Assembly (NCBI RefSeq): GCF_046119375.1
Contig: NW_027362765.1
Span: 257,114,001-257,178,000, forward strand
Length of the DNA: 64,000 bases
DNA from: Phyllobates terribilis
Lineage: Eukaryota
Direction of reading: 5' to 3'
The notes beneath the pieces were generated by a model that was not told the DNA's origin, made no database searches, and saw nothing but the letters and a program-made list of their open reading frames with translations. Below are positions 10,331 through 64,000 of this stretch, piece by piece (within the stretch, counting starts at the first letter, position 1; every line of letters begins with the position of its first letter). The translations under genes and the position numbers were made by a program.

Positions 10331-10617
10331 AAGAGCCATGCAGTACAGCATATTCAAAACATTATTCCCATTATTGGTGAGTGGGTCTCCCATAGTCTTT
10401 GCCTATGCCTTCCAAGCAAAAGCTGCCAAAAATTAGGACGGAGGAACTTGCAATGCTGGCAACACAGACCACGGTCACCCTGGTGGTATAGTGGTGGTGG
10501 AGGCTGAGGATAAGGAGAAAAGCAAAAAACTTCCGAAATGAGGAAGCGTATACCCATGTGTGGGTGTGAAGCGGTGCATGGCAATACACCTCCCGAAATA
10601 ACACAGTGGATTTGACT

Positions 10618-13896: not shown

Positions 13897-13959
13897 TGTA
13901 AATGAAGTAAAATAGCTTACACTCGCACTATCAATGGAAAAAGGGTAATAAATAGGAGA

Positions 13960-33915: not shown

Positions 33916-34029
33916 CTGAAGGTAGCTTACTGAGGGATGGCTGCGGTGGAGAGGAGTCACAGGAGGCAGTGTCACTGCTTCAGGAGGCCAGTGTCAGCGG
34001 GCCCTAGGCTCTCATAAAACGTCGGCGCT

Positions 34030-38450: not shown

Positions 38451-40717
38451 TCTAACAGTGATTGGCAGCAGCGCAGCAAATCAGTGTTAAGTTTTGTTTG
38501 TGGCTTCTCCCCCGCGCTGACAGCAGAGCTCAGGTAATGAGCCATGCTGTGCTGAGTAACAGTGCTCCTCCTCCACTATGTCACAGGCTGACAGTAAGAA
38601 GCACAGGGAGATGGATGACTGCCTACTACTGTCACACACAGTGTAGGAAAGACAAAGTGTGACACGAAGGGATGAGGGGAAGGGAGTCCAGACACTAGGG
38701 AATGGGGGAAATGGAGACCTCCTAGGCTGATCTGCAATTACCCTGTCTCCCCTACCGTCCCTATATTGGTTCTTAACCAATTGCCGCACAGGAACCTATC
38801 CCTGTATTTCCCTAGCGCTTGGCCCTGGATAGGGAAGGGGGGATGAGGGCTAGTCGATCCCCACTGACAACTAAAGACAGCAAAGGGACACAGATACGGG
38901 GGAAGTAGCTTAGCTTGAGGCGACTTCAGAGAGATGGCACACTCGTCCTCTTAGCACTAGAGAGGAAGTAAGAACTGCACTTGCTCCAACCCTTTGACGC
39001 GCCCAGGGGAATGGGGACGACTCGGCGCCTGGACCTTGTTGTTGCCTGACCTCGGGGGATGTCGCGGTGGTCGGCTCCTGGGCCCGTACCCTGGGGTCAC
39101 TCTTAAAAAGAAGGGGGAAGTTATATGGGATAGGGGAATGTTCGTGACGCCACCTGTGGTGTCTGGTGAGGATCACCAGCGCTGCGACAGTCCTCTGAGG
39201 CCGGTCTTCGGGCAGCTTAGTTGATGCGGCTCCCCACAGGTGGAGCGGGGCCTCAGGGCAGCGTAAGTGTAGGGATGCAGGACAGAGGGGACCCAGTCGG
39301 GACAGAGGAAGAATAGGCACACTCACAACAGTTCACTTCAGTACCTTTGCTGGTGGTGTTTCTGGCACGGTCCAGGGTACTTCAGGGTGAAGGGTACATA
39401 TCAGGACTCTCCCCAGTGAGCGGGTGTGGGGCCTCCTGGTTCTTGCCTTTCCTTGATAAGTTTCTGACCTGCCTGGAGCTAGGCCTAACTTGGTCTCTGT
39501 CTTGCACCTGCTGACCTGGTGGTAGGGCCTTCTGTTGGCGATCACACTCCCTGGTCTCTTGTGCCTCCGTGATTCCTGACCCTGGTATAACAGTCAGCTT
39601 TTGGTGTTCCTGGAACATATAGTTCGCCAGGGGTTCCGGTTATTTCTGCTGGATGTAAGGAATCCCTGCAGACGCGGACCCGGTGTCTGGTAAATGGTTT
39701 TGGGGTGAGCTGGTTAAGCTCCTCTGCCCCCTATGTTGCTTGCTTACTCCACTCGCCTTTGGCCACGCTCGGGGCCCTCACTAGCCTTCACACAGACAGT
39801 AGGCCTCGCTACTCTTCACCGCTATTTTGGCGTCGGCACGCCCTAGGCTCACTAACTCGAGCTCTCTGAGTCTGGACTGACCTGACAACCTCTCTGGCTG
39901 CAGCAGACTTCACACAGACTTCACTCTCTGTGGACTCCAGACTGTGGACTCCAGACTGTAGACTCCAAACTGAACTGCCTAGCTCCACCTTCCCTTTTTA
40001 TATCCCTAAGGGGCTCCCTCTGCTGGTTTGAGGTGGAAGGTGGAGGTGTGTGAATGCTATGAGGGCCTCTTGTGGAGGAATCCGTCCATGCAACCCTCTG
40101 GGATCTGTGGCACCAATGCGCAGCAGGGCGCCACATTCCCCCCTAGCTAAGCTCAGTACTCCCGGACTGAAGTAATTTTTATAACAGATGACAACAATAA
40201 CTCTTCACTTTACGGGAGGCACTTTGCTTGAACGTTACATATAAAACATTAGAGATAATAAATAGATATGTACAATACAATAAGCAACCTCAGAATTCAA
40301 GTCTCTTCCGGTGAGGTCCCCTAACAGGGTGTCCATCTCACAGGTTAAAGTACAAGGTAGCTTGAGGGACCTGTCCAAAGCAAACCCTCAACGTAGGCCC
40401 TGGGGTGGCTGCAGGGCATGGCGATCCTGAGCTGGACCTCCACTTCTGCCACGCCAGACAGGTTTTTGTTCTGAGGTCACCTAAAGGGGCACTCCAGGGA
40501 GTGCAATTATTTACCGCAAATAGTTTTTGGGCTGCACACAGTCCTCAGCCACAAAGTTCTTTATGTACCCTTACGGGTAACTAGAGATAACAAGGGAAGT
40601 GTCCATATCACTTAAATTGTCCATTATAAGGAAAAACACAAGTTAAGGAATTCATACATGAAAATACACAATATAATACCCCAAGGGCAACTATTTACAC
40701 TGTCAGAGTTTCCTTCT

Positions 40718-43700
40718 CTATTCTCTGTATCTGCCAGGGGTCTGACCTCGTGTGCTACGTGTCGACCTACGTGGTACGGGAGTGCGGATGGTATCTGTGT
40801 CTGCACCATCTGCTACCCTGTCACTTCTACGTGTGGGTAGATTGTAAAACTGCCTTAACCTCTCTATGGGACTGGCAAGTGTACCATTGGCTAGGCCTTC
40901 TTGCTCTGCTCCAACCGGGGATCCTTCTTCCGGGGATTCTTCTTGAGGCTCTTCTGAAGCACTTACAGGTTCTACTTGCTGTGGAGGGTCTTCTGGCTGT
41001 TGAAAGAAGTGGATCACAGGTATTATTACTGCTCCTCCTAGTTGAGGCCAATCTGCCGGGAAATCTCCTAAGTCAGTATGGAGTGCTGCTTCTTTAGGCT
41101 CCTCCGGTACGGTCAGAGGCACTTCTTCTTGGGGCTTTAGCAGGTCTGGACACAACTTCAGATGGTCTCTAGATACCGTTGCAGTCGTTATTTCTCCGTC
41201 TTTGCTAATCAAACAGGTCTTCTTGTTATCAAATCTTGAATTTAACACAGTGTAGGGTTCTCTCTCCCACTGGTCATCAAGTTTGTGGTTTCTCCTTTTC
41301 CTCTTTAACACCACTTCTCCTGGTGTGAAGGGTTCTGCTGGCGCACTTTTAATGTAGTGGGCTTCCTGCTTGTCCCTTACCCGAGTGAGACTGTCTTCGA
41401 CACAGGCCTGTACTCTTCTGTACTGCTCCTGTCTGGTCGCGTCCCAGTCCTCAGTGGACATATCTGCTTCTGGTTCTACTACACCCAGCTCCAGGTCCAT
41501 GGGCAACTTTCTGGATCTTGCTCGCATGAGATATGCTGGAGTACAATTGATGGAACTCACAGGTATGTGGTTGTACAGATCTACCAGGTCAGGTAGTAGG
41601 TCTGGCCACTGATTTCTCTCCTCTAGTGGTAAGGTCTTCAGCAGGTTGATGACAATGTTATTCATCTTTTCACAGAGACCGTTGGTTTGGGGGTGGTACA
41701 GTGTAGTCCGGATCTTTTTACACCCGTACAGATGGCAGAACTCCTTGAACAGTTCGGCTTCAAAGGCTGGGCCTTGATCCGTCAGCACCTGCTCCGGGTA
41801 TCCATGGGGCCTGCAGAAGTATGCCTAGAACGTCTTCACCGCAGTTTCTGCCGTCAGATCCTTGACGGGGGCGATCACCAGGAACCGGGAGTAGTGATCC
41901 ACCATGGTCAGGGCATAGGAATATCCTGACCTGCTGGGTGACAGCTTGACATGATCCAGGGCCACGATCTCCAAGGGACGAGTCATCTTGATGGGTTGCA
42001 GGGGTACCTTCTGGCTGCTGTAGTGTTTTCTTCTGAGGCTACAGGGTCCACAATTCCGGCACCACCTCTCAATGGAACTGCGCATTTCTACTCATAAAAC
42101 CAACACTTCAGCAGGGTTTCTAGCTTCTTCCAACCAAAGTGCCCCGCCTGATCGTGGTAGGCTTCCAACACCATCTGGATGACTGTCTTGGACACCACTA
42201 TCTGCCATACCATCTCATGGGTTTTGGGGTTGACTTACCTCCGGCACAGCTTCTCTCTATAGATGAACAGCCGGGCTCTTCTCATTCCACAGCTGCTTGG
42301 CTTGTAGAGACGCGTCCTTCTCCAGGGAGGAACCTTCCTGGGTTATCAGCTCTTTGATACGGCTGACAACCGGGTCGCTGTCCTGGGTCTCCTTCCAGCT
42401 GTGGTGAGGCAGGGGGTTTAACGTCTTTCTGCGATGCCTCCTGGAGGCTCGTTGCTCATGGACCACTCCATTCCGATGAAAGGCAGGTAGTTCAATCTCC
42501 TCCAGGTCATCCACTTCTTCCTCAGTGTCCGACTGGTGAGGCATCCTGGACAGGGCATCGGCGTTGGCGTTCTTGCGGCCCACCCGGTACTTAATAATGA
42601 ATTGGTAGTTTGACAGCCGAGCCATCCATAGTTGCTCCATGGCTCCTAGCTTGGCTTTTCCAGATGAGTCAAGGGGTTATCATCAGTGAAGGCAGTGAAC
42701 TTACTGGAGTCTAGGTAGTGCTTGAACCGCTCGGTGATGGCCCAGACCAGGGTCAGGAACTCCAACTTGAAGCTGCTATAGTTCTCTGGGTTCCTCTCGG
42801 TCGGGCAGAGCTTCCTGCTTGCATAGGCGATCACCTTCTCTCGGCCATTCTGCTTCTGACTTAACACAGCCCCTAATCCCTCGTTGCTGGCATCAGTGTA
42901 CAGCAGGAATGGTTAGCTGTAGTCAGGGTAGGCTAGGATCTCTTCGCCGGTCAGGATCTCCTTCATCGCCTCAAAGGATTCAGCTTGCTCCTTATCCCAC
43001 TGGAACGGGGGGTTTCTGCCTCTCCCGGACTGTCCTACCAGGAGATCTTGCAAAGGCGCCACTTTCTTGTTATAGTCATTCACAAACCTCCGGTAATACC
43101 CGACTAGTCCCAGGAACTGACGTACCTCCTTGAGGCTCTTCGGCTCCGGCCATTTCTGGATGGCAGTGACCTTTTCCGGGTCTGGTGCTACTCCCTCTGG
43201 ACTAACGATGTGCCCCAGGTACTGTACCTTTCGCTTGAGCAGGTGGCACTTTGAGGGCTTCAGCTTCATCCCATACCAGTACAGCGACTCAAATACCTCT
43301 GCCAGGTGCTTCAAATGGTCCTCGTACGTTTTGGAGTACACATTCACGTCATCCAGGTATAGTAGTACAGTCTTGAAGTTGCGGTGTCCCAGGCAGCACT
43401 CCATCAATCTCTGGAACATTCCGGGGGCGTTGCAGAGTCCAAACGGCATACTATTGAAATTGCAGAGTCCCATCGGGGTGGTGAAGGCCGTCTTCTCCTG
43501 ATCCTCCTCAGCAACAGCTACTTGCCAGTACCCACTAGTGAGGTCAAGGGTGGAGAAGTAATTTGCAGACTTCAAGGCAGCCAGGGATTCCTCTATACGT
43601 GGTAAAGGGTATGCATCTTTATGTGTAATGTGATTTACTTGTCTGTAATCTACACACATTCTCATGCTTCCGTCCTTTTTCCTGACTAGAACTAGGGGAG

Positions 43701-44859
43701 CTGCCCAGGGACTACAACTATCCCTCACTACCCCTGCCTTCTTCATGTCATGCAACATCTCTTTCGCCTTCTGGTAGTGTGCTGGTGGTATAGGCCTGTA
43801 ACGTTCTTTGATGGGTGGATGGTCGCCTGTGGAGATATGGTGTTGAACCCCCTTAATCCTCCCAAAGTCAAGTGGGTGCTTACTGAATACCTGCACGTAT
43901 TCCTGAACCACCCGGTGTACACCCTGCTTCTGATGGGCAGGAGTGGTGTCTGTCTTAACATGAAGCTGTTGACACCAATCCTCCACCTGGGTTGCCGGGT
44001 CGTTATCCTCTACTTCGTCTGGTGAGGTTAAGGACTCCACCGTGTGTATGGAGTTGTTATTTACTGTGTACAGCTTGGCAACAGTGGCATAGCGTGGTAA
44101 TCTAACCTCGTCCTCCCCATAGTTTAGGAGGCGTACGGGCACCCTCCCATTGCGTACATCTACTACCCCTCTGGCAGTCAGGAGTGTAGGTCTATGTTCC
44201 GAGTTAAGGGGCTCTACTACCGTCTGGTAGCTCCATCCTTTGAGACCTATTGCTGCTCTACACCAAATCAGCATTTCACTCATCGGGGGAATCACAATGG
44301 GTACCGGGTCTGTCACCCGCACATTACCAATTTCACCGCCTGTTAGCTTTACCTGTTGCTGGTACATACATAAGGGCTCGGATCTCTTTCTGGAGCGCCC
44401 TTCTCTGCCCTGATCTGGCAGTGTCAGCTATCTGTTGGAGCAAGAACTCCACTTCTCCCAAACAGTTACTAACAATATTTGTGCCAAGTACCATATACAA
44501 GTCTGTATCATCAGGATTAGTCTCTGCTACAATTAGTCCCTGGTCCTTCAGTTCCACTCTTCCCACCTTTACTGCCACATCCTTAACCCTGACTAGGTTA
44601 AGGGGGAGGCGTTTGAGGCATACACGGAAAGATTTGGATCTGGTGGGTGAAGTTAGTCTAAGGACCAGAACCTTTTGTAGAGGACATCAGGCATAATGGT
44701 TACCTGAGATCCTGTGTCCAGCAGAGCAGGTGTCGCGATGCCGTCCAGCACGATGGACAGGAAAGGTCTTCCTCCCACGAACCTGCGGTACCAGTTTGAT
44801 GGGCCTGAGGGGTCTACTCCTGGGTATCGGCCCTCGGCCCCAGGGTTTGTTCGTTTAAA
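40718..44859 (-). pseudogene. pol: Gypsy Pol (PR, RT, RNase H, integrase), disrupted
   Basis: Contains LLDTGSQ, YLDD, YTDAS...IAYASR, GHFG...C..C, LDHV, TDQG and NGLCEKMN. It is entered by a -1 frame at the slippery heptamer TTTAAAC (44853-44859). There is an in-frame stop at ~44654 and several frameshifts. Confidence 0.95.
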
Positions 44860-45752
44860 GGACAGCTCCGGATGGCGTGACCTGTCTTGTGGCAGCGGTG
44901 GCAGACAGGGTCCTTCGGCGGGCGGCTTTGGTCACTGGTCCTCCCAGGGGGTGGCGTTGTCCTCCTTCTCCTTCTCATCCAGGGGACATCCTCAGGGCTG
45001 TCGGCTAGCAGGATCCTCCCTTCCTCCTCGGGCTCTGTCCGGTGCTGCAGGGCACTCAGTACAGTGGTCAGGGTTTTGCTCAACTGACGCACTTCCGAGC
45101 GCAGGCTGTCCAGCTCACTAGGGAACGTTGCTTGCACCTTGGCTTCAGCAGCCACCGGGGAAAAGGTGGACGCTGCGGGCACTGGGGTGGCCCCACCCTG
45201 GTAAAATTGGATAGCAGTTGTTTCCAGGGGCTGCAGTCCTTTTATAGCCATGTCCTTAAGGGTGTCAAAGGTGGCATCTGGGTGATCCAGGGACCACCAA
45301 TGCACAGTCCTGCTCTTCTCTTGAGACCTCAGTCCCCGGATAAACTGTTCCTTCAGCATTCTATTTTCATTATCCATGCTGGTTGGACTAACCTGTTTCA
45401 GAGCTCGCAGGGCCCCTTGTAAATGCCAGGCATAGTCCCGAACACTGTCCTCTGGTTGCTGAGAGCAGTTGTAGAACCTCATCCGGAGGTCTGTCTCAGT
45501 ACGATTCTCAAAGACAGTCTGTAACTTTTTAAAGATTGCGGACACTGACTCCTGGCCTGCGGCCGACCAGGTCTCTACTTCTCGCTCCGCAGCACCAGTC
45601 AATTGTCCTAATACAACAGCGGCTCTTTGCTTGCCTGTCATAGAGTACATGTCCAGTATACCGCATATTTTCCTTTTGAATCCAGACAGGGTATCTGGTT
45701 TGCCGCTGTACTGGGGGATCCACTTCGCTCCAGGGATGTACGATAGGGCCAT
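44814..45752 (-). CDS. gag: Gypsy Gag (PNMA-like capsid plus CCHC zinc knuckle)
   Basis: 312-aa ORF with C-terminal CHRCHKTGHAIRSC (CX2CX4HX4C). Confidence 0.9.
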   Translation of the reverse strand: MALSYIPGAKWIPQYSGKPDTLSGFKRKICGILDMYSMTGKQRAAVVLGQLTGAAEREVETWSAAGQESVSAIFKKLQTVFENRTETDLRMRFYNCSQQPEDSVRDYAWHLQGALRALKQVSPTSMDNENRMLKEQFIRGLRSQEKSRTVHWWSLDHPDATFDTLKDMAIKGLQPLETTAIQFYQGGATPVPAASTFSPVAAEAKVQATFPSELDSLRSEVRQLSKTLTTVLSALQHRTEPEEEGRILLADSPEDVPWMRRRRRTTPPPGRTSDQSRPPKDPVCHRCHKTGHAIRSCPLNEQTLGPRADTQE

Positions 45753-46236
45753 GGGTATGACAGGGGTTACAAGCCCTGCTGGTGGAGCGGCTGTTTCGGC
45801 CTGCTCGGCGCCGAGCCGGGTTGAACATCAGGGTCGTTAACCGGTATTCCGGCGTTGTGCTGTTCTTCGGACATTCTGGCGCCCCCCTAACGAACCGTGG
45901 CCTACCTTCTCTTCTTTACTTCCGGTAGGCCGTAGCTCCGCAGGTGACGGTCTTCCTTCCGGACCTTGCGTCGCTTGCGTCCTATGTCAGAGCGTTCACC
46001 GGGGCTCCTTCCAGGACCTGGCGCTTCCTGGTTTGATGTCAAGGTGTGGGGCGTGTTCGGGGCTTCACGCGAATCAGCAGCTACACCTCTCAGTTTCCCG
46101 CGGTTACACCCTTCTTCCCGCTCGGCGGCACAACAATGGCGGCGATCTTCGCCACAGCTATATACACAGTTCTGATTAAAGGCGCACAGTACCCGGTGGC
46201 AACAGGCACAACACTCCGTCATTGCAGCGGGCACGG

Positions 46237-46255
46237 AATCCTGTTCGTGACGCCA
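46237..46255 (-). promoter_or_regulatory. Gypsy primer-binding site, tRNA-Ser (CGA-type)
   Basis: TGGCGTCACGAACAGGATT is complementary to ...AATCCTGTTCGTGACG-CCA, the vertebrate tRNA-Ser(CGA) 3' end as I recall it. Confidence 0.85.
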
Positions 46256-47799
46256 GGAAGAGATGACGCGCCCAGGGGAATAGGGACGACTCGGCGCCCG
46301 GACCTTGTTGTTGCCTGACCTCGGGGGATGTCGCTGTGGTCGGCTCCCGGGCCTGTACCCTGGGGTCACTCTTAAAAAGAAGATGGAAGTTATATGGGAT
46401 AGGGGAATGTTCGTGACGCCACCTGTGGTGTCTGGTGAGGATCACCAGCGCTGCGACAGTCCTCTGAGGCCGGTCTTCTGGCAGCTTAGTTGATGCTGCT
46501 CCCCACAGGTGGAGCGGGGCCTCAGGGCAGCGTAATTGTAGGGATGCAGGACAGAGGGGACCCAGTCGGGACAGAGGAAGAATAGGCACACTCACAACAG
46601 TTCACTTCAGTACCTTTACTGGTGGTGTTTCTGGCACGGTCCAGGGTACTTCAGGGTGAAGGGTGCATATTAGGACTCTCCCCAGTGAGCGGGTGTGGGA
46701 CCTCCTGTTTCTTGCCTTTCCTTGATAAGTTTCTGACATGCCTGGAGCTAGGCCTAACTTGGTCTCTGTCTTGCACCTGCTTACCTGGTGGTAGGGCCTT
46801 CTGTTGGAGATCACACTCCCTGGTCTCTTGGGCCTCCGTGATTCCTGACCCTGGTATAACAGTCAGCTTTTGGTGTGCCTGGGACATATAGTTCGCCAGG
46901 GGTTCCGGTTATTTCTGCTGGATGTAAGGAATCCCTGCAGACGCGGACCCGGTGTCCGGGAAATGGTTTTGGGGTGAGCTGGTTAAGCTCCTCTGCCCCC
47001 TATGTTGCTTGCTTACTCCACTTGCCTTCGGCCACGCTCGGGGCCCTCACTAGCCTTCACACTGGCAGTAGGCCTCACTACTCTTCACCGCTATTTTGGC
47101 GTCGGCACGCCCTAGGCTCACTAACTCGAGCCCTCTGAGTCTGGACTGACCTGATAACCTCTCTGGCTGCAGCAGACTTCACACAAACTTCACTCACTGT
47201 GGACTCCAGACTGTGGACTCCAGACTGTAGACTCCAGACTGAACTGCCTAGCTCTACCTTCCCTTTTTATATCCCTAACGGGCTCCCTCTGCTGGTCTGA
47301 GGTGGAAGGTGGAGGTGTGTGAATGCTATGAGGGCCTCTTGTGGAGGAATCCATCCATGCACCCCTCTGGGATCTGTGGCACCAATGCGCAGCAGGGCGC
47401 CACACCTTCACAAGGTCATAAGGGATCATGTGAATATCACCGGCACCTCCCTCTAGCAACAGTCAGTATTTAAACACCCAGCCTGGGTGTCAATTAGCCA
47501 GAGGCAGGTAGTCGCTGGGTCCTAGAGTGAGACAGCTAAGAAGGTGCCTGTAATTCCAAACAAAGAGATCTTCGGCAACCAACTGCAGGGCGACTGTCTG
47601 TCACTTCTGACACACCCGTGACAGCTACATCACTCACCAAAGGTTAGATATATGTAGCTGAGCTTGATTATCACCAATAGTGAGCCCTTGCCAACACAAA
47701 CAGTGGGTATCATAGGCGGCTTTACTCACTGGTGATAAAGGGTGAGTGGGCTCAGTCACTAAGGGAGGATTTCCCTCATTTTTTTGTTTCACCCCTGAC

Positions 47800-50057: not shown

Positions 50058-52915
50058 TACATGACTTTTCTTGATCTGATTTGGGCTGCATTGTTGCATT
50101 GAAGTCCGTATAAAGTCTTATTTTTCATGAATATTGTAAAGAGCAGCATAACGTATGAGGTTTCAGAAAATAGATTGCCTCTCATTAAATGTAATGGCAG
50201 CATTATCATCTTATAGATGCTATAACAGGCCCTTATTAGAACTCAGTAGGACAGACTGCAAATGGTTCTGTCTTTTTCAGCATAGCTTTCATTTGTGCTC
50301 TACATTTTCCAATTACCTTCTACTGTTTTTAGTGGTATCAAAGCACATTCCCTTTCATTAATTCTCTGGTCTTTTAATTGCTTTAGGGATAATTATGAAA
50401 AATGTCATAACGTGTTTTGCACACAAAGCCAGAAGCTTACTGTACACCTTATCTGTCTGTGCGGCAATGCCTCAGGAGGAAGACACAATGAATTATGTAG
50501 TGTAGATTTGAAAGTACTAATTAATCAGAAAGCTAGACCCCAGGAAGAGAGGAAGGAACAAGCAAAACTGTGGAATGGGCATCCTGCCTCCTTACTCCAA
50601 TGTGGCAGGTCATAAAAACTAATCCTTGCATTACTCAAAACATGCAAAAAAGACAAGATCTAGAGATATGATACTCTTTCATAACAGCACAAAAGTGCCC
50701 AAAAAAATAACTAACACCATTTATTATGTACTCTCACAGTAAACACACGAGTGAGGAATTGGAATTACATATAAAATGTAAAACATGGCAGATTATTTAC
50801 AAATTCCTAAGGCCAATTTCTTATAGTTATGTCCATACTGAAGAATTCCCTTGTGGGCTATTTTCTTCATACTGCCAAGAGAGAAAATATGACATTTACA
50901 AGACTAGAACCTCCCATTTTAGACTATTAGTTTCAGTAGATCTCCCGCATTAAACATAAGTATTTCCCATACATCATCACTACACAAGTGCACACTGAGA
51001 ATTAATATACTTCCAACTTTACTGTACCCTCTGAAATATATAAGCATTGTGCTGATCTATACCGTGTACGGTAGGTACCCTGTTTATGGTTGTCAACTGC
51101 CCAGCCACTCCTCTCCTCTCCTATCCCTTTGGTCCTTTCCCTTTCCTTTTCAGTCTCTTTCCTTTCCCTTTCTGTCATGTCCCATGATTTGGAAGTCATA
51201 CAGACAGTATTGTATTATCATTGTGACGCGCCCCCTGGGACATATTCCTTTTTGAGGGGAATACCCGGCACCGGATCAGATGGGGGGTTGTAGTCTCCGA
51301 GCGGCTGTGACCCGGCCCCGTGCCCAGGGCGTCAAGCTCAGTGTTATGTGGCAGTCCTACAGATGTTATTAAGAGTTCTTTTGTGTCGACTACGCCACCC
51401 GTTGTGATGCGGTCACTGTGGCCGCCGCTGCAGCAGGGTCCGCTGAGGCTGATGGTGGATGCGCAGCTTGGTGGGATAACCCCCAACGGGAGGGGTATAG
51501 CCTCAGAGGGGACAGGCGCAGAGGATGGGGGTTGTGGTGGTGCGGTGCAGCCGGCAGTGAAGACAGAGTCGGGTTGTGCAGTTAAGGGTGTTTACTTACT
51601 GCAGATGTTGTACTGGTCACTCCAGCTGCTAGTGACCACCCGAGCCGTGCTGCGTCCACCAGGTCCTGGATCCAGCCAACCCCCAAACAAGTCCGGAGCG
51701 TGGCCCTGAGCTCTCCCTCTGTCCTTTCTTCAGCCGTCCCCACCAGTGATTCACCTAGGTCCAGCTCCCTCGGGCCTTCTGTTGGGACACCCTTGGCCCT
51801 GGGTTCCCTGACCCTTCATGTGGTGTGCCTTCGGGGTGAATATGGTGGGTGACCGTGGCAAACGCTGCCCACGATCTCCGGTCTCTGGCTAGGGATTGTT
51901 TTTGCCCCCACCAGCTTGGGTTCCGGTACCCTGATGCTGACTCCTCACCCGGTGCTCTAATTTGGGTTCTTGGGTCCCTTCAGTCTTCCCCCTCTGGGTC
52001 TTTCTCTGCTCCACTCTCTCTCTCTCCAGGGCTGCTGTTTCCTTCTCTCTCCTCTCCAACTCACTTTCTGCGTCTGAACTTGTCCTCTGCAGCTGACTGA
52101 CCCTGATCTAAGTTGGTGCCCTCCTTATATATCCCTCTATGTGTGAGCTCAGGTGACCAGCACCCAATGAGCTCCTATCACTACCCAGACTGCTCCCCCT
52201 ATCTGCCCCTACACTACATGGGATGTACCACCCCCCTCCCACTCCAGCCAGGAACAGGCTCGGTTGTACCTGCACATTTCTAAGTGGGAGTACCGTCGGC
52301 CTGCTCCTCTGAAATGGGATGTATGTAGTGCATGCAGTCTATCTGAGCTCAGTTCCACACTCCATCCTTACCCGGGAGTGGAATATCACACCTCTGGGTT
52401 GAGGTGCAATACCCCTGTAGCAGCCGAACCCTCAGGGTGCTACATTCCCCCCTGGTAAACCACAGCACGTCCTCGGGCTGTAAAGACATAAAACACCAAA
52501 ACATACAATTTTTTTTTTTTTTTTTCATATAAACATATAAAACATATAAAACATTATATATATAAAACTTTTTTATATAAACATTCTCGTAGACTTCTCT
52601 TGTCTCTGGTTCCTCCTCCGGACACTGTGCAACGTGTGTCCGGGAAAAGTGCGACAGTCTCTTAGAAAAACTGGTTTTCTATAAAACCGGTAGGGGGCGC
52701 TTTAGGAAGCGCAACTATATACAGGGAGAAGTTGGAAGTTGGCCGCTCTCAGTCCTCGGCCAGGTAGAGGGAAGGGAATGGCTGCTCACAGTCCTCAGCC
52801 TGTAGGATAAAGGGGTTAACGGGTAAACAGTTCACTGGTCCCAACGGGGACTATTTTAGCTCTAACGGTTCACTGTGCCCCGACGGGCAACTATATACAG
52901 TCTCTACTCCCGTCC

Positions 52916-54742
52916 TCAACGACGGCTCCCTCCTGCTTTTTCTTGATATGGTGTTGCTTCAGACCCGTCCGGGTCCTCTGGCTCCTCCTCTCCGTACCGC
53001 AACTCCTCCTCCGTCAAGCGGTGTACGTGGAGGGCGTAAGGTCCTTTGGCACACTTGTGCCGGGTGAAAGTGACTTCGTCTCCGACGTAGAGGTCACGGC
53101 CTTTGTGACCTTCCGGCAGGTGGGACTCGACGTCTCTGCGAGTCACAAAAACGTCACCGCGGTTGTTACGGTCCCGAATAAAGCCCCACCCATGCTGCGG
53201 GTTGAACTTTATCACTGTCCCGATGGTGCGGGGACAATGCGCTGCACGGGGGTTCCTCCTAGTCCGGCTCTTCTGCTCCGCGCTCCGGATTTGGGCCTGT
53301 TGTTCTCTGACCCGCCTCTCCTCCCGTTCTCTCTTAAACTCTGCTAGCTGCTGACGACAACACTCAGTACGCTCAGCGGCGACTGCCCGAGTTTCTCCGG
53401 TGAACCCCATCAAATCTTCTCCCGTGGGGTCCCACACGAATTGGGCTTCTTCTAAAGGAGGCGAGACCCGAGTCACGGGCTTCGGAGCCGGGATCAGGGG
53501 TTCACACAAGGGCCCTAGTCTTTGTTGCCGCTCCAGCTCATGGTATCCTTCGGGCCAGATGAAGGGTCGCCCGTCCGGCCATGTGAGCTGGCTGAAGAGG
53601 TCCTCCCCCAGGTGTGGCACCCTTGGTATTGCGGGCGCGGGCGCGGTGGTGGTGGCGCCCGGGTTGCCCAGGCCTTGCGGCCAGGCCTGGGGCACCTGGA
53701 AGGTGAAGGGCACCGTTAGGACGGCGGCGCCCTGGGCTACCTGGCCTTGCGGCCAGGCCGGAGGCTCCGCGGAGGTAGGGGGCGCTGTTGGTGGTGCGGC
53801 GCCCGGGGGTACTAGGCCTTGCGACCAGGCTGGTGGTAATTCCTGCTTTGTCACGCTCCGGGTCGAGGCGCGTGACGTCACAGGGGTCGCTGCGGTGGCT
53901 TCCGGTCGGGGCCTAGTCCATGGCGGTGACATGGCGGCTACGGGCACAGCAGGGGGACTTTCGGGCTCTGCGACGGGGAGCTGGGGCAGGTGGGCGGTTT
54001 CACGGCTTGGGGTATAGACGTCCCCTTTACCTGCCTCCATGCGTTCGGCTCCCTCCTCGGCGCCGTCTCCGGCCTTGGGTCCTCCCGCGCCATCCTCAGA
54101 GGCGGTCTGCTTCCTCTTCCAGGGTAGCGTGCTCCGTTGACTGGTCTCTGCTTGCTGGGCCATCTCCCGGCTCCACTCCGCCAGTATCTCACGCTGTACC
54201 CGGGCCATCCTCCTTGCGAGGCCCTCCAGGGCAGTTTGTGCACACTCCCGGTCTCGGGGGAGCTGCGCTAAGATCTCCGCTAGACCTAGCGGGGTTGTGG
54301 ACTCTAGCAGGCTCCTGACCATCGGGTCGGTGCTGCTCTGCTCTTCTTCCGGCAGGCTCCTGGCCAGCGGGCCGGTGCTGCTCTGCCCTCCTTCCTCGGT
54401 CTCTAGCAGACTCCTGGCCAGCGGGCCGGTGCTGTTCTGCTTTCTCTCCATCTCCGGGTGAGCTCCTCCGCTACTCCTCGTTAGACCTCTTGCCTCCGGG
54501 TGCGCTCGCTCCAGACTCCTCCAGGCGACACCCATCTTTGTTCTCTCCTTTCGTCTCCTCCCACTTCGAGGGCGGTCCCGGGGCAACTCGGTGACTGTCA
54601 GCTCCAGGGGTAGTTCTTTCACGCTGACAGACACCTCCAACATCACAGTCTCTGTTGGTGGGGGCGGTTTCCACTTTTGGCGCCATTTTCTGTCCTGGCC
54701 CACGATGGGAGGTGGCCTCCTGCCCTCCTTTGGCACGCCCAT
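52916..54742 (-). CDS. ~608-aa Pro-rich/coiled-coil protein with a C-terminal Y-box-like cold-shock domain (CSD at ~53015-53224) and an acidic tail
   Basis: Uninterrupted ORF. GTVIKFNPQHGWGFIRDRNNRGDVFVTRRDV...GDEVTF...KGPYALHV aligns to the CSD pattern (GTVKWFN..GYGFI...DVFVH...G..V.F...KG..A..V). The first ATG after the PBS is at 54742, and the frame is also open further upstream. Confidence 0.88.
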   Translation of the reverse strand: MGVPKEGRRPPPIVGQDRKWRQKWKPPPPTETVMLEVSVSVKELPLELTVTELPRDRPRSGRRRKERTKMGVAWRSLERAHPEARGLTRSSGGAHPEMERKQNSTGPLARSLLETEEGGQSSTGPLARSLPEEEQSSTDPMVRSLLESTTPLGLAEILAQLPRDRECAQTALEGLARRMARVQREILAEWSREMAQQAETSQRSTLPWKRKQTASEDGAGGPKAGDGAEEGAERMEAGKGDVYTPSRETAHLPQLPVAEPESPPAVPVAAMSPPWTRPRPEATAATPVTSRASTRSVTKQELPPAWSQGLVPPGAAPPTAPPTSAEPPAWPQGQVAQGAAVLTVPFTFQVPQAWPQGLGNPGATTTAPAPAIPRVPHLGEDLFSQLTWPDGRPFIWPEGYHELERQQRLGPLCEPLIPAPKPVTRVSPPLEEAQFVWDPTGEDLMGFTGETRAVAAERTECCRQQLAEFKREREERRVREQQAQIRSAEQKSRTRRNPRAAHCPRTIGTVIKFNPQHGWGFIRDRNNRGDVFVTRRDVESHLPEGHKGRDLYVGDEVTFTRHKCAKGPYALHVHRLTEEELRYGEEEPEDPDGSEATPYQEKAGGSRR

Positions 54743-54978
54743 AATGGCGTCCGCTGCTCTTCCAAGGCGGGAAATCTGCGGTTTTGGCGGGAAGCGTCGC
54801 CCAGTGGCGGGAAACTCTGCAGATGGCGGGAACAAGCTGGAAATGGCGGACAATCGGCGGGAAACGACTGGTGATGGAGTCCGATGGCGTGGACCCTCCG
54901 GAACCGGCGGGAGACTTCTTTCTGAGGTAAACTTGCACTTTTCTTCAGGCACGCAGTACCCGGGTGTTGCGGGCACGT

Positions 54979-54997
54979 AATCCTGCCGACTACGCCA
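54979..54997 (-). promoter_or_regulatory. Primer-binding site, tRNA-Ser (AGA/TGA-type)
   Basis: TGGCGTAGTCGGCAGGATT is complementary to ...AATCCTGCCGACTACG-CCA. An identical PBS occurs at 58288-58306. Confidence 0.88.
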
Positions 54998-57014
54998 AAG
55001 TTGACGCGCCCCCTGGGACATATTCCTTTTTGAGGGGAATACCCGGCACCGGATCAGATGGGGGGTTGTAGTCTCCGAGCGGCTGTGACCCGGCCCCGTG
55101 CCCAGGGCGTCAAGCTCAGTGTTATGTGGCAGTCCTACAGATGTTATTAAGAGTTCTTTTGTGTCGACTACGCCACCCGTTGTGATGCGGTCACTGTGGC
55201 CGCCGCTGCAGCAGGGTCCGCTGAGGCTGATGGTGGATGCGCAGCTTGGTGGGATAACCCCCAACGGGAGGGGTATAGCCTCAGAGGGGACAGGCGCAGA
55301 GGATGGGGGTTGTGGTGGTGCGGTGCAGCCGGCAGTGAAGACAGAGTCGGGTTGTGCAGTTAAGGGTGTTTACTTACTGCAGATGTTGTACTGGTCACTC
55401 CAGCTGCTAGTGACCACCCGAGCCGTGCTGCGTCCACCAGGTCCTGGATCCAGCCAACCCCCAAACAAGTCCGGAGCGTGGCCCTGAGCTCTCCCTCTGT
55501 CCTTTCTTCAGCCGTCCCCACCAGTGATTCACCTAGGTCCAGCTCCCTCGGGCCTTCTGTTGGGACACCCTTGGCCCTGGGTTCCCTGACCCTTCATGTG
55601 GTGTGCCTTCGGGGTGAATATGGTGGGTGACCGTGGCAAACGCTGCCCACGATCTCCGGTCTCTGGCTAGGGATTGTTTTTGCCCCCACCAGCTTGGGTT
55701 CCGGTACCCTGATGCTGACTCCTCACCCGGTGCTCTAATTTGGGTTCTTGGGTCCCTTCAGTCTTCCCCCTCTGGGTCTTTCTCTGCTCCACTCTCTCTC
55801 TCTCCAGGGCTGCTGTTTCCTTCTCTCTCCTCTCCAACTCACTTTCTGCGTCTGAACTTGTCCTCTGCAGCTGACTGACCCTGATCTAAGTTGGTGCCCT
55901 CCTTATATATCCCTCTATGTGTGAGCTCAGGTGACCAGCACCCAATGAGCTCCTATCACTACCCAGACTGCTCCCCCTATCTGCCCCTACACTACATGGG
56001 ATGTACCACCCCCCTCCCACTCCAGCCAGGAACAGGCTCGGTTGTACCTGCACATTTCTAAGTGGGAGTACCGTCGGCCTGCTCCTCTGAAATGGGATGT
56101 ATGTAGTGCATGCAGTCTATCTGAGCTCAGTTCCACACTCCATCCTTACCCGGGAGTGGAATATCACACCTCTGGGTTGAGGTGCAATACCCCTGTAGCA
56201 GCCGAACCCTCAGGGTGCTACAATTGTGTTTATATTGTGCCGTTTGTTGCTATGCAATAAGGTTTGCGCTCTTTAGAATTTGTCCTTCCTCTCTCCTTGT
56301 CTCTCTCTGATGTCAGTAACACCTCCCTTCTTCCTCATTCACTGTATATCAGCCATCTTAGAAGCTCATGTGTTTCTGAAAAGTTTTTTTTACCTACTGT
56401 AACTGTGCATAACTACAAGAATTCAGCTGGAAAATAAACCTTCTTCTGGAATCTTTATATATGCTTCCTGCAGTCGAGTTCAAGCTATCTGAGGACATCA
56501 CTCTGTGTGAGTAACGGTTGATAGAGGCAGCCTAGAACTGGTGTCTCAAGCTCTCTACACTTGCAGCTTAGTTATTGAGTAAGAATACTTTTCTTTTTCC
56601 CTTCCCTTCGCTTTCGTTTCCTGCAGACCTTCTGAGCCCTGTACCTTCTTGGTAGGCGATATTATCCTCTAACTTGTCTTCTTCAGAGAATGGACATGCA
56701 ATCTGAATATGCTATCCTTGAACTGTTGACTTTTCTGCCTCGTCCCCAGATTATCTTCTTTCTTTAGATGAGAGAATCTATTTTGCACGGAATGAGTTTG
56801 GTACAAATCTTTCTTCACTCATCAGTTTGTAAATACAACTAATTTGGGATTAGTTTTCTGCTGATCGCCCAAAATGGCCACTGCCAGGTTAATAGGTAGC
56901 ATAAGACAGAGGAGAAGACTGGATAATATGTCAGAGAAGAAGGATGTATCACATGAACTCGGATGCGGCTGGGCAGGCTTCCCAATAATGCCTTGCAGTT
57001 ACTCCACACGATAG

Positions 57015-60000
57015 TGTAGCACCCCGAGGGCTCGGCTGCTACAGGGGTATTGCACCTCGAACCAGAGGTGTGGTATTCCACTCCCGGGTAAGGATGGAGT
57101 GTGGACTAGAACTCAGTTAGCTGCATGCACCACACACACCCCATTTCCGAGGAACAGACCGACGGCACTCCCACTAGAAAGATGTGCAGGTACGACAGCT
57201 TCTGTTCCTGGCTGGAGTGGGGAGGGGGAGGAAAACCCAGTGGTGTAGGAGCAGATAGGGGCGGGTTTCTGGGCATAGGAAGGAGCCCATTGGTTGCTAA
57301 TCACCTGGGCTCGGATGTCAGAGGGAGTATAAAAGTTGGGCACCATCTTAGGAGTGAGTTCAGTTGAGTCAGACAGAAGAAGAGGGAGAAGAGGAGTGAC
57401 AGGGAGCAGCAGCCCTGTCTGGGTGCTGCCCCTGGAGGGAGCAAGAGTGAAGAAGAAAGGAACAAGAAGCAAGGAAAGAATGAAACATAAGAAAAGGCCC
57501 AGAGACATGAAGCAAGAAGGAACCCGAACACGCTAGGAGTCAGCGGGTGAAGGGTTGGCAGATCAGGGTACCGGATCCCAAACTGGTGGAGGCCACTTAT
57601 CCTCAGCCAGGAACCGGAGGATGTGGCCACGTCTTGGCGCGACCACTCACTACACTCACCACGAAGGCATGCCACATAGGGTCAGGGAGACCGGAGAAAG
57701 GTTTCGCCATCAGAAGGCCTGAGGAAGCTGGACATGGGTGGGTCCCTAGTGGGGACGGCCAGAGAAAGGAACGGGGAAAGGAGTTCAAGGTCACACTCTG
57801 GAACTGCCTGGGGGTTGGTCGAGCCCCGTACCTGGTGGACGCAGCACGACTCGGGTGGTCCTACTGTGCACGGACGACCTGGTAAAGAACTGTGAGTAAA
57901 GCTTTTGAAACTGCACTTCAAGCCTCCGTGTTTCGTCGTCGCACCTGCACCATCAGTACTGGGACACCCGCACCATCACTCCCATTGTCATTTCTTTCAT
58001 AGCTGCCCTGAGGCCATACCCCTCCCGTTGGGGGTTATACCATCCACGCTGCACATCCGTACCACCGGCCTCAGCGGACTGCCCTGCAGCGGCGGCTTCA
58101 TAGCCGCATTCAACGGGTGGCGTAGTCGGACACTAATACCATCAAATCAATAGCGCCACTTAGTTTGACCACCCTGGGCACGGACCGGGTCACCGCCACG
58201 AGGACTACTACCCCTATCTGATCCGGCTCCGGGTATTCCCCGCGTGCGCAACGCTACCCAAACATGGCCCAGGGGGCGCGTCAACTTTGGCGTAGTCGGC
58301 AGGATTACGTGCCCGCAACCACCGGGTACTGCGTGCCTGAAAAAAGAGACTTTTATACTTGCCTGTGGTGAAGTTTTCCGCCGTCCGGAGTCGTTTCCCG
58401 CCATCTGGAGCCGATTCCCGCCATCCGACGCCATCTTCTGCCTTCTTCCCGCCATCCGTGGAGTTTTCCCACCATTGGACGCCATCTTGAGGACGCCGCG
58501 CGGGAAGAAGAGGGGCGTGGACTCCGAAAGCCCGCGAGAACTGAAGCCCCGCCTCACGTCCGGACGTTGCGTAAGGTCCTGGAAGGAGCCCAGCAGACGC
58601 CGACGTCACAGGAGCGCGACGGAAGGTCCTCAACCCTGACGATCCACTGCGTAGCCGCGGCCTACGGAAGAGGATCATCACAAGGTAGGCCACGGTCCAC
58701 TAGGGGGGAGGAGGATGTCGGATACGGAGGAGAGCTTCACTACCGCAGCCACCATCCAGCACTGCGTCCATCCCGAGAGGCAGCAGAAGCGGATCGGAGG
58801 CCGAGGATGACGCCGCGGGGGAGGCCGCAACGACAAGTAAGGGGAACGCCGTTACTCCGGGCCCTGAGGCCGCGGACCTGCCCCTACCTCCCGCCGCGGA
58901 ACCCGAAGCTCTGGGTGCCGCACCGCCCGCCGTGCCTCCATCACCAGCAGTTAGCCCTCCAGCAGCATGCTCTGCAGCGGAGCCTCGCCCAGGACCGTGC
59001 TCCCCAACATCGGGCACGATCAGAAAGTCACCGGCCTGGTTGAAAGGCCGAGTGCCCGCGGGCGCTTCACCCCAGCCGGGGCCCCCAGTCGTACCACCAT
59101 TGGGGAAAGACCTGTATGAGCAGCACACCTGCCCGGAGGGGACACCATTCGTCTGGCCGCCTGAATACACCAACCCCCGCTCCAGGAAGAGTCACCCCGT
59201 AGGAGCAAGGGCCCCAGATGAACCGTTAATCCCAGCTCCGGAGCCGTGGACCTCTCTTCACCCCCGCTGGAAGACGCCAATTCGAAGGGGACCCCACTGG
59301 AGAAGACCTGATGGGGTTCACTCAGGAGACCCGGGCGGGCGCCGTCCGGCGCTATGGGACCTGCCGCCAACAACGGGCAACGGTTGAGCGGGAGCGGAGA
59401 GAGAGGAAAGTGAAGGAGAAGTGGCTCCACATTAAAAACGTGGAGCAGAAGACAAGGGCCCGCCAGGACCCCCCGTACAGCTCACGGTCCCCGAGTCACC
59501 GGGACTGTTGTTAAGTTTCATATGGCATGTGGCTGGGGCATCATTTAAAACCCGAAGACCATGAGCCAGGTGTTTGTAAACAGGAGCGACGTAGAGTCCC
59601 ACCTACCGGAGGGGCACAGTGGACGGGACCTGGTGCCTGGAGATACCGTCACCTATACCAGGCATAAGGGAGTGAAGGGGTGGTGCGCCCTTCATGTCCA
59701 CCGGGTCAAGGAGGAGGAGGAGTTATCGTACCAGGAGGAGAAGAAAGAGGGCCCGGACGGGTCTGAACCTGAGGAAGAGGAAGGAGCGTGTGGAGGATAC
59801 CGTAAATCGTAAACGGTAAAAGAGGAGATGTAAATAGTTACCCGATCGGGTATAAGGACTGTTGTGAGACTGTTTCCACAAAGAGTGTGGTCCCCGTTGG
59901 GACAGAAAGAGAACTGTTGCCTGTTTTGCCCTAATCCCTAACCTGACCGAGGACTGAGAGCGGTCATCCTTTCCCTCTACCTGGCTGAGGACTGACAGCG

Positions 60001-61580
60001 GCCAGATCCCAAGGAGTCAAGAATGTTGAAAATGTTTTATATGAAAAATGTCTAAATGTGAAAGTTTTACAATGCCTCTAAAAGTAACGATGCTGAAGTT
60101 TTATATATCGTGTTTTCTACAAAAGAGTTCCCGTGGCATTAGCAAAAGCGTTGATATCAGTAACGTTAAAGTGAAAAGAGTACCTCCCATAAAGGGATGA
60201 TTTGAAAGTTAATGTCTTATTTATGAGTGTACACTTTAAAATTTTTGTAAGTTTGTAATTGTTTTGCTCTGTTTCAGCCCGAGGACGTGCTGTGATTTAC
60301 CAGAGGGGAATGTAGCACCCCGAGGGCTCGGCTGCTACAGGGGTATTGCACCTCGAACCAGAGGTGTGGTATTCCACTCCCGGGTAAGGATGGAGTGTGG
60401 ACTAGAACTCAGTTAGCTGCATGCACCACACACACCCCATTTCCGAGGAACAGACCGACGGTACTCCCACTAGAAAGATGTGCAGGTACGACAGCTTCTG
60501 TTCCTGGCTGGAGTGGGGAGGGGGAGGAAAACCCAGTGGTGTAGGAGCAGATAGGGGCGGGTTTCTGGGCATAGGAAGGAGCCCATTGGTTGCTAATCAC
60601 CTGGGCTCGGATGTCAGAGGGAGTATAAAAGGTGGGCACCATCTTAGGAGTGAGTTCAGTTGAGTCAGACAGAAGAAGAGGGAGAAGAGGAGTGACAGGG
60701 AGCAGCAGCCCTGTCTGGGTGCTGCCCCTGGAGGGAGCAAGAGTGAAGAAGAAAGGAACAAGAAGCAAGGAAAGAATGAAACATAAGAAAAGGCCCAGAG
60801 ACATGAAGCAAGAAGGAACCCGAACACGCTAGGAGTCAGCGGGTGAAGGGTTGGCAGATCAGGGTACCGGATCCCAAACTGGTGGAGGCCACTTATCCTC
60901 AGCCAGGAACCGGAGGATGTGGCCACGTCTTGGCGCGACCACTCACTACACTCACCACGAAGGCATGCCACATAGGGTCAGGGAGACCGGAGAAAGGTTT
61001 CGCCACCAGAAGGCCCGAGGAAGCTGGACATGGGTGGGTCCCTAGTGGGGACGGCCAGAGAAAGGAACGGGGAAAGGAGTTCAAGGTCACACTCTGGAAC
61101 TGCCTGGGGGTTGGTTGAGCCCCGTACCTGGTGGACGCAGCATGGCTCGGGTCGTCATCACCTGCAGGACTGACGTTAATAACAACTGTGAGTAAAGCAT
61201 TGAAAACTGCAATCAGTCTCAGTGTTCCATCGCACCACCAGCACCATAGGTACCGGGACGCTCTTACTATCACTCCCTTCACCCGCACCAGCTGCCCTGA
61301 GGCTATACCTCTCCCGTTGGGGGTTATACCACCATAGCTGCACATATATACCATCGGCCTCAGCGGACTGATTTGCAGTGGCGGCCTTGCGACCGCAAAT
61401 CAACGGGTGGCGTAGTCGGACACTAATACCATCATACCAATAACTGCCACTTAGTTTGACCACCCTGGGCACGGACCGAGTCACCGCCACATGAAGACTA
61501 CTACCCCCATCGGATCCGGCTCCGGGTATTCCCCGCGCGCACGCGCGCCGTACTACAGCACTGGCCCAGGGGGTGAGTCA
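57015..61580 (+). mobile_element. Second subfamily of the CSD-carrying LTR element (4566 bp), TSD ATAG
   Basis: LTRs at 57015-58283 and 60311-61580, PBS at 58288-58306 and PPT at 60299-60310. ATAG occurs at 57011-57014 and 61581-61584. Confidence 0.95.
58600..59812 (+). pseudogene. Disrupted homolog of the CSD protein
   Basis: Conserved blocks KGNAVTPGPEAADLP, GKDLYEQHTCPEGTPFVWP, EPLIPAP, DLMGFTQETRA and GTVVKFHMACGWGII*NPKTMSQVFVNRSDVESHLPEGHSGRDL. Has frameshifts and a TAA at 59546. Confidence 0.88.
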
Positions 61581-61965
61581 ATAGCACAGCCAATCATGAG
61601 GGGCTATGAGTCCAGAGGTCCTTGATGACTCATTATCGCTATAAAAGCCTAAGTAGAAGATGCTGCTGCTACTTTCTGGGGAATGTTGATAGGTGAGGAG
61701 ACCTCAGAACTCAGCCAGAGAGATATACTACCCATTGTGAGGATTAGTGTATGAAGAAAAGAGAATAGATACATTAAATTATAAGAAATTTATATAAAAA
61801 GGAGAGAGGGAGGAGACACTGAATTTAGTGAGGTACGACACTCTTTTTTTTGGACCGGGCCAGTGGCTGAATTTGCATCTTCCAATGTTGCTGTCTATTC
61901 AGTGCAGGCTGAATGGTGTCTGTAAAAAATGTCTGAGAGAGTGGCAGTGGATGAGATAATATTAA

Positions 61966-62301
61966 AGGGAATCTGTCATATGATTTTTCTGCCCAAACTA
62001 TGGGTAGCATAAATCGGAGCCTGGCAGCATGATTGCACCTAGATATGTTTTTTCTCTGAACCAGCATTTCAGAGAAAATATAGTTAAAAGATCTGGCCAT
62101 CTGGCTATGATCCATAGCTGGAGATGAGACTGGTCTTGTACTGTCCCTAGTCAGCTTTTTCCTGCACTGCTCTAGGTGATTGACAGGTCTCTTGCAATGG
62201 AATTTTCTAATTATACTCTCTCTGAAACACTCAGGCTGCCACCAGGCTCTGATTTAAGCTGCTTGTAGTTTGGGCAGCATGAATTAAGTGGTAGATTCCA
62301 T
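61966..62301. mobile_element. T2/Kolobok-type MITE
   Basis: TTAA|AGGGAATCTGTCA ... GGTAGATTCCAT|TTGA, with a degenerate right TSD. Confidence 0.55.
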
Positions 62302-63640: not shown

Positions 63641-63682
63641 GTTGCCATATCGTCATCTTTTTTTTTACTTTTGAAAAAAATC

Positions 63683-63962
63683 CCAACCCTAACCCCAACC
63701 CTAACCCTAGCCCAACCCTAACCCAACCCTAACCCCAACCCCAACCCTAACCTTAACCCCAACTCTAACCCCAACCCTATCCCCAACCCTAACCCCAACC
63801 CTAACCCTAGCCCAACCCTAACCCTAGCCCAACCCTAACCCCAACCCTAGCCCAACCCTAGCCATAACCCCAACCCTAACCCTAGCCTAACCCTAGCACA
63901 AACCTAACCCTAGCCCAACCCTAACCCCAACCCCAACCCTAACTCTAGCCCAACCCTAACCC
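63683..63962 (+). repeat. Degenerate telomere-like hexamer tract (CCCTAA/CCCCAA/CCCTAG mix)
   Basis: Directly visible. Flanked on both sides by transposon sequence. Confidence 0.9.
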
Positions 63963-64000
63963 CAGGTCGTTCCGGACGCAGCAATACCAAATATGTGTAC

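Follow-up and report, generated by a model that had tools for sequence, protein, structure and literature searches.

We analyzed a 64,000-nt stretch of the genome of the frog Phyllobates terribilis (GCF_046119375.1, contig NW_027362765.1, positions 257,114,001-257,178,000, forward strand), referred to here as the window and numbered from its first letter; the sequence is eukaryotic and rich in repeats. Two long terminal repeat (LTR) elements within it, copy A and copy B, lack gag and pol and carry a single open reading frame (ORF), here called the cargo, that ends in a cold-shock domain (CSD). The interval 58284-60310, to which a preliminary description of the window had drawn attention, is precisely the internal part of copy A. 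The two copies are laid out as follows (PBS, primer-binding site; PPT, polypurine tract; W/P, Trp/Pro).

57015-61580, plus strand: copy A, a broken and chimeric LTR element without gag or pol, bounded by TG...CA and flanked by the 4-bp target-site duplication ATAG
57015-58283, plus strand: 5' LTR of copy A, 1269 bp, with TATAAA at 57328 and AGTAAA at 57895
58288-58305, plus strand: PBS of copy A, of the same sequence as in copy B
58745-59812, plus strand: cargo ORF of copy A, 5'-truncated and spread over three frames
59103-59337, plus strand: W/P-rich block of copy A, constrained, no fold predicted
59338-59472, plus strand: charged helix of copy A
59495-59704, plus strand: CSD of copy A, interrupted by a stop codon at 59546-59548
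59705-59809, plus strand: acidic tail of copy A, without a selection signal
60296-60310, plus strand: PPT of copy A
60311-61580, plus strand: 3' LTR of copy A, 1270 bp
51224-56222, minus strand: copy B, an LTR element without gag or pol, with target-site duplication CAAT
55002-56222 and 51224-52444, minus strand: LTRs of copy B, identical over 1221 bp
52916-54451, minus strand: cargo ORF of copy B, intact, 511 codons from a candidate start at ATG 54451
53384-53608, minus strand: W/P-rich block of copy B, 75 residues
53021-53221, minus strand: CSD of copy B, matching PF00313 at 34.9 bits (cut-off 27)

Both copies have the anatomy of LTR retrotransposons, with paired LTRs, TG...CA ends, target duplications, a PBS that we take to be of the tRNA-Ser type and a PPT; a search of papers for the PBS motif found nothing. 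The opening 11 bases of the PBS also recur within each LTR, ~165-175 bases before its end (58118 and 61408 on the plus strand, 55175 and 51397 on the minus strand). Because its LTRs are identical, copy B is a recent insertion. Between its PBS and PPT no remnant of gag or pol was found, and a Pfam search with its ORF gave the CSD only. The B frame is open up to 55264, or 782 codons counted from inside the LTR, whereas in 1000 shuffles no stop-free run exceeded 371 codons. From its N-terminus the ORF comprises helices, a Pro/Ala linker with three PxAWxQG repeats, the W/P block, the charged helix, the CSD and the acidic tail. In-frame tandem repeats of the type STGPLARSL lie near the start of the B ORF (54451-54300, minus strand) and suggest that coding begins upstream of the annotated start of its nearest relative, P0001 (see below). 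The observed/expected CpG ratio is 0.81 and 0.73 in the cargo ORFs (52916-54208 and 58745-59812), compared with 0.41 in the B LTR and 0.48 in the window.

The preliminary description had reported colinear peptide blocks shared by two internal regions of unlike length. The regions measure 2027 bp in A and 2557 bp in B, and all of the named blocks were found, in the same order:

GKDLY..FVWP: A 59103-59159, plus strand; B 53608-53552, minus strand
EPLIPAP: A 59220-59240, plus strand; B 53503-53483, minus strand
DLMGFTQETRA: A 59305-59337, plus strand; B 53416-53384, minus strand
DVESHLPEGH: A 59588-59617, plus strand; B 53134-53105, minus strand
ALHVHR: A 59687-59704, plus strand; B 53035-53018, minus strand

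A tblastn search with the B ORF joined the two cargos at E 6e-49 and matched only A and B within the window. Homology also reaches upstream of the named blocks (A 58761-59102 against B, local score 161, equaled by none of 500 shuffles), where the PxAWxQG repeat occurs once in A. Outside the ORF, the two copies are homologous in the 3' LTR, the start of the leader, the 3' untranslated region (UTR) and the PPT, and the ORF therefore most likely diverged inside an element. A and B had been described as diverged subfamilies; copy A, being broken and chimeric, is no clean representative of one. The reading frame of A changes between 59240 and 59305 and again between 59337 and 59501, and 58704-59276 contains no ATG in the cargo frame.

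The two copies were aligned as DNA only and codons were scored in the B frame, with 221 of 230 codons aligned. Differences were distributed 68/63/104 by codon position; the proportion of differing sites was 0.62 at synonymous sites (pS) and 0.25-0.27 at non-synonymous sites (pN) under four alignment settings. The ratio pN/pS was 0.43 (bootstrap 0.34-0.54; 0.41-0.43 over the four settings), with a Jukes-Cantor dN/dS of ~0.25, whereas the ratio was 1.13-1.37 in four control frames and 0.66 in the antisense frame that is in register. By part, the W/P block had a pN/pS of 0.34 (Fisher 1.6e-7 over 70 of its 75 codons) and the stretch from QFVWD to ETRA inside it 0.13, the helix 0.48 and the CSD 0.33. 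The acidic tail that had been counted among the conserved parts is present in both copies but carries no selection signal (pN/pS 1.06-1.11). The third-position excess was retained when CpG-context sites were removed (35/149, 39/157 and 74/159 by codon position; p 6e-6), and the same residue is kept in 111 of 188 codons, a count that none of 5000 permutations of the substitutions reached (mean 75, maximum 95). Neither the LTR nor the 3' UTR, taken as controls, shows a period of three bases (90/100/87 and 60/52/55). The outcome named beforehand as speaking against selection, equal divergence at synonymous and non-synonymous sites, was not seen, and these data support purifying selection on the cargo ORF during the divergence of A and B, in the service of the element or of the host.

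An independent comparison, of the B protein with its nearest relative, the uncharacterised P. terribilis protein XP_073514116.1 (P0001; 88% over the region searched), agrees with this test. Within the W/P block 72 of 75 positions are identical, and within the CSD 68 of 71; taken together, these blocks are identical at 140 of 146 positions against 220 of 284 elsewhere (Fisher p 2e-7). The data also support the proposal that the ORF is not a recent passenger: synonymous sites are near saturation, identity to the nearest solved CSDs is ~30% and relatives occur in several frog genera.

AlphaFold2, run on a 10-row alignment that is shallow in the W/P region, predicted with confidence a five-stranded OB barrel for the CSD (predicted local distance difference test, pLDDT, 82-95; root-mean-square deviation of 1.6-2.2 Å to Csp structures) and a 47-residue helix. 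This helix had been taken for a coiled coil; its composition, 47% charged and 11% hydrophobic, is more like that of a charged single helix. The W/P block scored a pLDDT of 46-64 and is likely disordered according to the model. It had been put forward as a possible unrecognised domain, and it is indeed constrained, but its low AlphaFold2 confidence is accompanied by no match in Pfam and, for block and helix together, no usable match in the ESM Atlas. Fold searches were dominated by the CSD and hence uninformative on the block. Among the matches listed, a protein search with the block alone gave P0001 and the repeat protein P0022 (no single significant stretch); its last motif, F-x-W...L-x-G-F-x-G-E, is seen in P0002, and the remaining motifs were not seen beyond P0001. 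We therefore read the W/P block as a set of conserved short motifs within a region that would be flexible. In the N-terminal region, ~65 residues are modeled as helical and a long Pro/Ala stretch is modeled with low confidence; a low-confidence single-sequence model (mean pLDDT 55) showed no capsid-like fold and no fold match at E 0.001.

A HMMER scan for the family returned 154 proteins at E <= 0.001, of which the best 150 of 154 were listed. Ten relatives besides P0001, picked for their resemblance, were looked up: six are frog proteins, annotated but uncharacterised, in records of five other species (two from Ranitomeya variabilis, one from R. imitator, two from Anomaloglossus and one from Bufo bufo, the last annotated as 'Y-box-binding protein 2-A-like'), and outside frogs there were one dinoflagellate protein and one CspA-family protein. 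In nine scanned relatives, PF00313 was found above the cut-off in five, below it in three and not at all in one, and no gag or pol domain was found in any. Outside the CSD, the relatives are only 25-41% identical to B. When the family profile was compared with PDB sequences, eight CSDs of YBX1 and YBX2 came first among 47 matches (56.0-57.8 bits), followed at lower rank by CspA (48.7), Lin28 (34.2), CARHSP1 (19.5) and CSDE1 (18.8 bits); the Bufo protein alone also ranks Y-box CSDs first. A Y-box origin of the cargo CSD is likely on these profile matches. At the equivalents of YB-1 F74, F85 and F111 (YB-1 numbering also applies to the residues below), 9, 10 and 10 of 10 aligned proteins have an aromatic residue. 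Further diverged and more Y-box-like CSD proteins (P0117, P0106/P0151 and P0127), in part from Bufo bufo, may be earlier stages or separate captures. A CSD tree of 22 rows, none of them Y-box, without any starred branch, grouped eight poison-frog-type rows (86/88) and placed the Bufo protein and P0151 as their sister (81/86); it was not used as proof of origin. Word-index protein searches returned, in turn, only P0001, nothing, and P0001 with P0105; the ESM Atlas gave generic CSD clusters only, under 0.9; and no related locus was confirmed among 16 pattern matches in viral contigs and 124 in metagenome contigs.

The cargo resembles YBX1 and YBX2 in having a single CSD, whose loop has the greater length typical of Y-box proteins, placed after a Pro/Ala-rich region, and it is to these proteins that the best profile matches were obtained. 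FRGY2 is also the name of a vertebrate Y-box protein. In contrast to YBX1-3, the CSD of the cargo is only ~30% identical, the W65 and H87 equivalents are mostly lost, so that conservation falls short of Y-box grade, and B has an acidic tail of 33 residues in place of the long C-terminal domain of alternating basic and acidic stretches. The cargo also has extra helices and W/P motifs that YBX1 and YBX2 lack.

The class of the elements and the mosaic structure of copy A are seen by comparison with a third element in the window:

38995-47404, minus strand: element C, a decayed Gypsy-type gag-pol element with PNMA/gag, CCHC, reverse transcriptase (RT), RNase H and integrase, and no CSD
57847-58741, plus strand: putative foreign tract in copy A, comprising the end of the 5' LTR, the PBS and the leader
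58480-58722, plus strand: leader segment of copy A, with homology to element C (its leader and the probable start of its gag) and not to B

The LTRs of element C are 96.7% alike and its target-site duplication is AAGG; a weak dUTPase-like match lies between its protease and RT (E 0.068). Judged by features of termini, PBS, PPT and leader in common with C, an element with the Gypsy order of domains (PR-RT-RH-IN), A and B appear to be of the Ty3/Gypsy type. They have no pol (internal regions of 2.0 and 2.6 kb) and no similarity to C beyond the leader. The leader segment of A matches C in 173 of 279 columns, at a score of 130 against at most 42 for shuffles, and its folding is no better than that of shuffles (z -0.46). 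Up to 57846 the two LTRs of A have 5 differences in 832 sites; beyond it they have 77 in 427 (~18%), with the target duplication intact. In four public runs, the match of A-type contigs starts at 58745, preceded by 78 letters without a match in record 31 and by 205 in record 13, and other contigs depart from the window sequence at 58741, where summed depth falls ~300-fold. From the break in the LTR pair, the C-like leader and these departures, we infer that 57847-58741 came from another family, through template switching between co-packaged RNAs or through gene conversion. Dating by LTRs would overstate the age of copy A, given the ~18% difference inside the foreign tract. An ORF that replaces gag at the gag start codon was considered and rejected: the arrangement is true only of chimeric copy A, where the ATG at that point is out of the cargo frame.

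The stop codon in the CSD of A is not a family-wide trait, as at that site all contigs of X1, X9 and X12, and part of those of X2 (1857 of a depth of 7652), differ from the window; of 471 contig-to-window differences and 112 indels, the 40 and 12 listed were used here. Contigs of X9, presumably an RNA run, and of the unlabelled run X12 were not taken as a sign of expression. A single contig of 1122 bases covers 58745-59784 with 44 differing and 8 gap letters. In the X2 run, an A-type contig has a depth of 2236 compared with 5.5-10.5 in unique flank, a rough sign of many copies, depth not being equal to copy number.

Based on these results, the reading that we favor, at about even chances, is that a helper-dependent Gypsy-type frog element captured a Y-box-type CSD long ago and has retained it as an accessory that binds the element's own RNA. 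A and B would be two lineages of a non-autonomous element that keeps all cis signals (LTRs, PBS and PPT) and is copied in trans by the Gag-Pol of a related autonomous element, with C a relative of the presumed helper. The ancestor would have acquired the CSD, most probably from a Y-box gene, and incorporated it into one ORF. Y-box proteins mask oocyte mRNA. By analogy, the cargo CSD may bind the element transcript and stabilize or mask it in the germ line, and the helix may hold the CSD at a distance from conserved Trp/Pro motifs, to which a partner (helper Gag or an mRNP factor, for instance) would dock; storage and packaging of element RNA would thereby become more frequent. Lineages retaining the ORF would persist as sources, while ORF-less copies like A would insert once and then be dead ends. 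The mosaic of A with a gag-pol-type leader is as expected if element RNAs meet helper RNA in one particle. YB-1 is reported to stabilise the genomic RNA of HIV and MLV (PMC6040738). LTR elements are also reported to pick up mRNA when the template is switched and to remain mobile afterwards in non-autonomous form (PMC5131818), a route by which the CSD could have been captured.

Several observations weigh against this reading. Copy A is a recent insertion (the 5 of 832 LTR differences noted above) with a broken cargo ORF, so that one round of insertion does not require the cargo protein in cis. The W65 equivalent is lost in 8 of 10 proteins and that of H87 in 9 of 10, with both changed in B, and the RNA affinity of the CSD may be altered by these losses. 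The Y-box assignment is also less clear from single sequences and folds: B alone scores bacterial Csp at 28 bits against 24.7 for YB-1, fold searches tie the domains of Csp, Lin28, CARHSP1 and UNR, and the preference of the family profile leans partly on P0117 and P0127. The selection test compares a single pair of DNA copies, dS is near saturation, and neither the third-position excess among transversions only (30/29/44, p 0.13) nor the deficit of stop codons (312 of 5000) is significant. Furthermore, mismatch between the LTRs of A and B (277 of 1186, 23%) is far under the pS of 0.62, which indicates that the LTRs are constrained or exchanged and that ORF and LTR histories may differ. The function, expression and RNA binding of the cargo protein are proposals that draw on analogy.

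The alternative that survives best, although we consider it unlikely, is host co-option, in which the frog itself uses the protein, perhaps to store mRNA in oocytes or in early development, while expressed loci are the target of selection and the dispersed copies are offshoots. A trans-acting protein is hard to select at the level of the element, copy A moved without an intact ORF, and NCBI annotates relatives as genes in several frogs. As far as the available text of the sources goes, precedents exist in Bik-1/Bik-2 (PMC12067270) and the pol-less Xenopus 1a11 and xretpos(L) (PMC4585706). Copy B, however, is a fresh insertion with an intact ORF from a multicopy family, and the strong divergence of the relatives outside the CSD is unlike that of conserved host genes. 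Ranked after it, and improbable too, is an autonomous Gypsy lineage in which the cargo is selected as an extra ORF that A and B inherited as deletion derivatives. The terminal motifs, PBS type and PPT that they share with C and the C-like leader of A are compatible with such a history, and extra ORFs are known in autonomous Gypsy elements (PMC9289625, available portion). Yet C has no CSD, the B ORF matching only A and B in the window, none of the nine scanned relatives has a gag or pol domain, and no remnant of either gene lies between the PBS and PPT of B. We find it quite improbable that the ORF is a Gag diverged beyond recognition, with a CSD in place of the nucleocapsid zinc knuckle, by which the element packages its own RNA. 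As the sole ORF between PBS and PPT it occupies the place where Gag-only elements retain Gag, and it has helices at the N-terminus and a domain of nucleic-acid-binding type at the C-terminus; however, it has no Pfam gag, PNMA or CCHC match, whereas C gag matches them, BLASTP against C gag gave no match (best E 0.48), and the low-confidence models of the N-terminal region contain no predicted capsid fold. A neutral passenger whose conservation is an artefact of alignment or mutation is very improbable and already largely refuted, for although the LTRs are as alike as the non-synonymous sites and two copies were compared, the signal comes from a DNA-only alignment at four settings, is specific to one frame and outlasts both CpG removal and permutation, with aperiodic LTR and 3' UTR controls.

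A helper-dependent element with a captured CSD, as we favor, has partial precedents; the comparisons that follow are drawn from the portions of the cited papers available to us. Pol-less single-ORF LTR elements include Xenopus 1a11, xretpos(L) and lambda-olt 2-1, of which 1a11 and xretpos(L) are expressed at gastrula (PMC4585706), and zebrafish BHIKHARI (Bik-1/Bik-2) and chicken ENS-1/ERNI; Gag of the non-autonomous BHIKHARI elements has been shown to act for the host (PMC12067270). A and B are likewise vertebrate, multicopy LTR elements without pol that keep one ORF. The ORFs of the 1a11/BHIKHARI/ENS-1 group are described as Gag or Gag-like, with demonstrated expression and function, whereas the A/B cargo has no gag match, ends in a CSD and is known here from sequence. 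As in LTR-mediated retrocopies (PMC5131818; maize Bs1 is cited there), host coding sequence replaces gag and pol between LTR parts and transposes onward as a non-autonomous element. Those retrocopies are young and have an identifiable parent gene; the A/B cargo is old, remodelled (~30% identity to Y-box CSDs), part of a new protein and selected across lineages. Intronless host sequence within LTR parts is what the continuous B ORF and its host-type CSD represent, but the donor is too diverged for a parent gene to be named, Y-box being favored by profile only. Orchid Gypsy elements carry an ORF for an AlkB m6A demethylase proposed to act on element RNA (PMC9289625), also a host RNA-acting domain fixed in a Gypsy lineage; they are large plant elements in which this ORF is an additional one with enzyme activity in vitro, while A and B are small and the cargo is their only ORF. 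Two poison-frog genome papers describe abundant Gypsy/LTR elements (PMC6278860; bioRxiv 10.1101/2023.11.06.565769), and the words 'cold shock' are absent from the main text of both, as available. Among the papers listed by literature searches, none dealt with a CSD in an LTR element; subscription journals, Repbase and Dfam lay outside these searches, and the two repeat databases may catalogue the family without comment.

Further repeats occupy the rest of the window:

28153-29426, plus strand: solo LTR of the A/B group, with target-site duplication CAAG
12733-13896, minus strand: ORF with a BED zinc finger (PF02892), probably the remnant of a hAT-type DNA transposon
8915-10410, 13916-15714, 20287-21809 and 32674-33986: tandem arrays with units of 52, ~150, 28 and 31, and 72 bases, respectively
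63670-63991: degenerate CCCTAA-like array

An Rfam search gave 0 matches within 51000-62000.

Non-autonomous elements are expected to shed coding sequence, and the vertebrate elements that keep an ORF are described as retaining Gag. If instead a host-derived RNA-binding domain alone is selected, then either RNA survival or packaging in the germ line would be limiting enough to pay for a gene, or a new host co-option would be at hand. In a poison frog, Gypsy-type elements account for roughly a gigabase of the genome and show high expression in ova (PMC6278860). More tentatively, and as a doubtful extension that we regard as possible, hyloid frogs may harbor a widespread and active satellite retroelement that, without Gag or Pol, would use its own Y-box mimic to mask and store its RNA in oocytes, hand it to helper particles or shield it from silencing, and so add to the LTR-driven expansion of poison-frog genomes. 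The findings suggest that several frog genes annotated as 'uncharacterized' or 'YBX2-like' are element cargo, and the cargo ORF provides a concrete and testable candidate in Gypsy-rich frog genomes.

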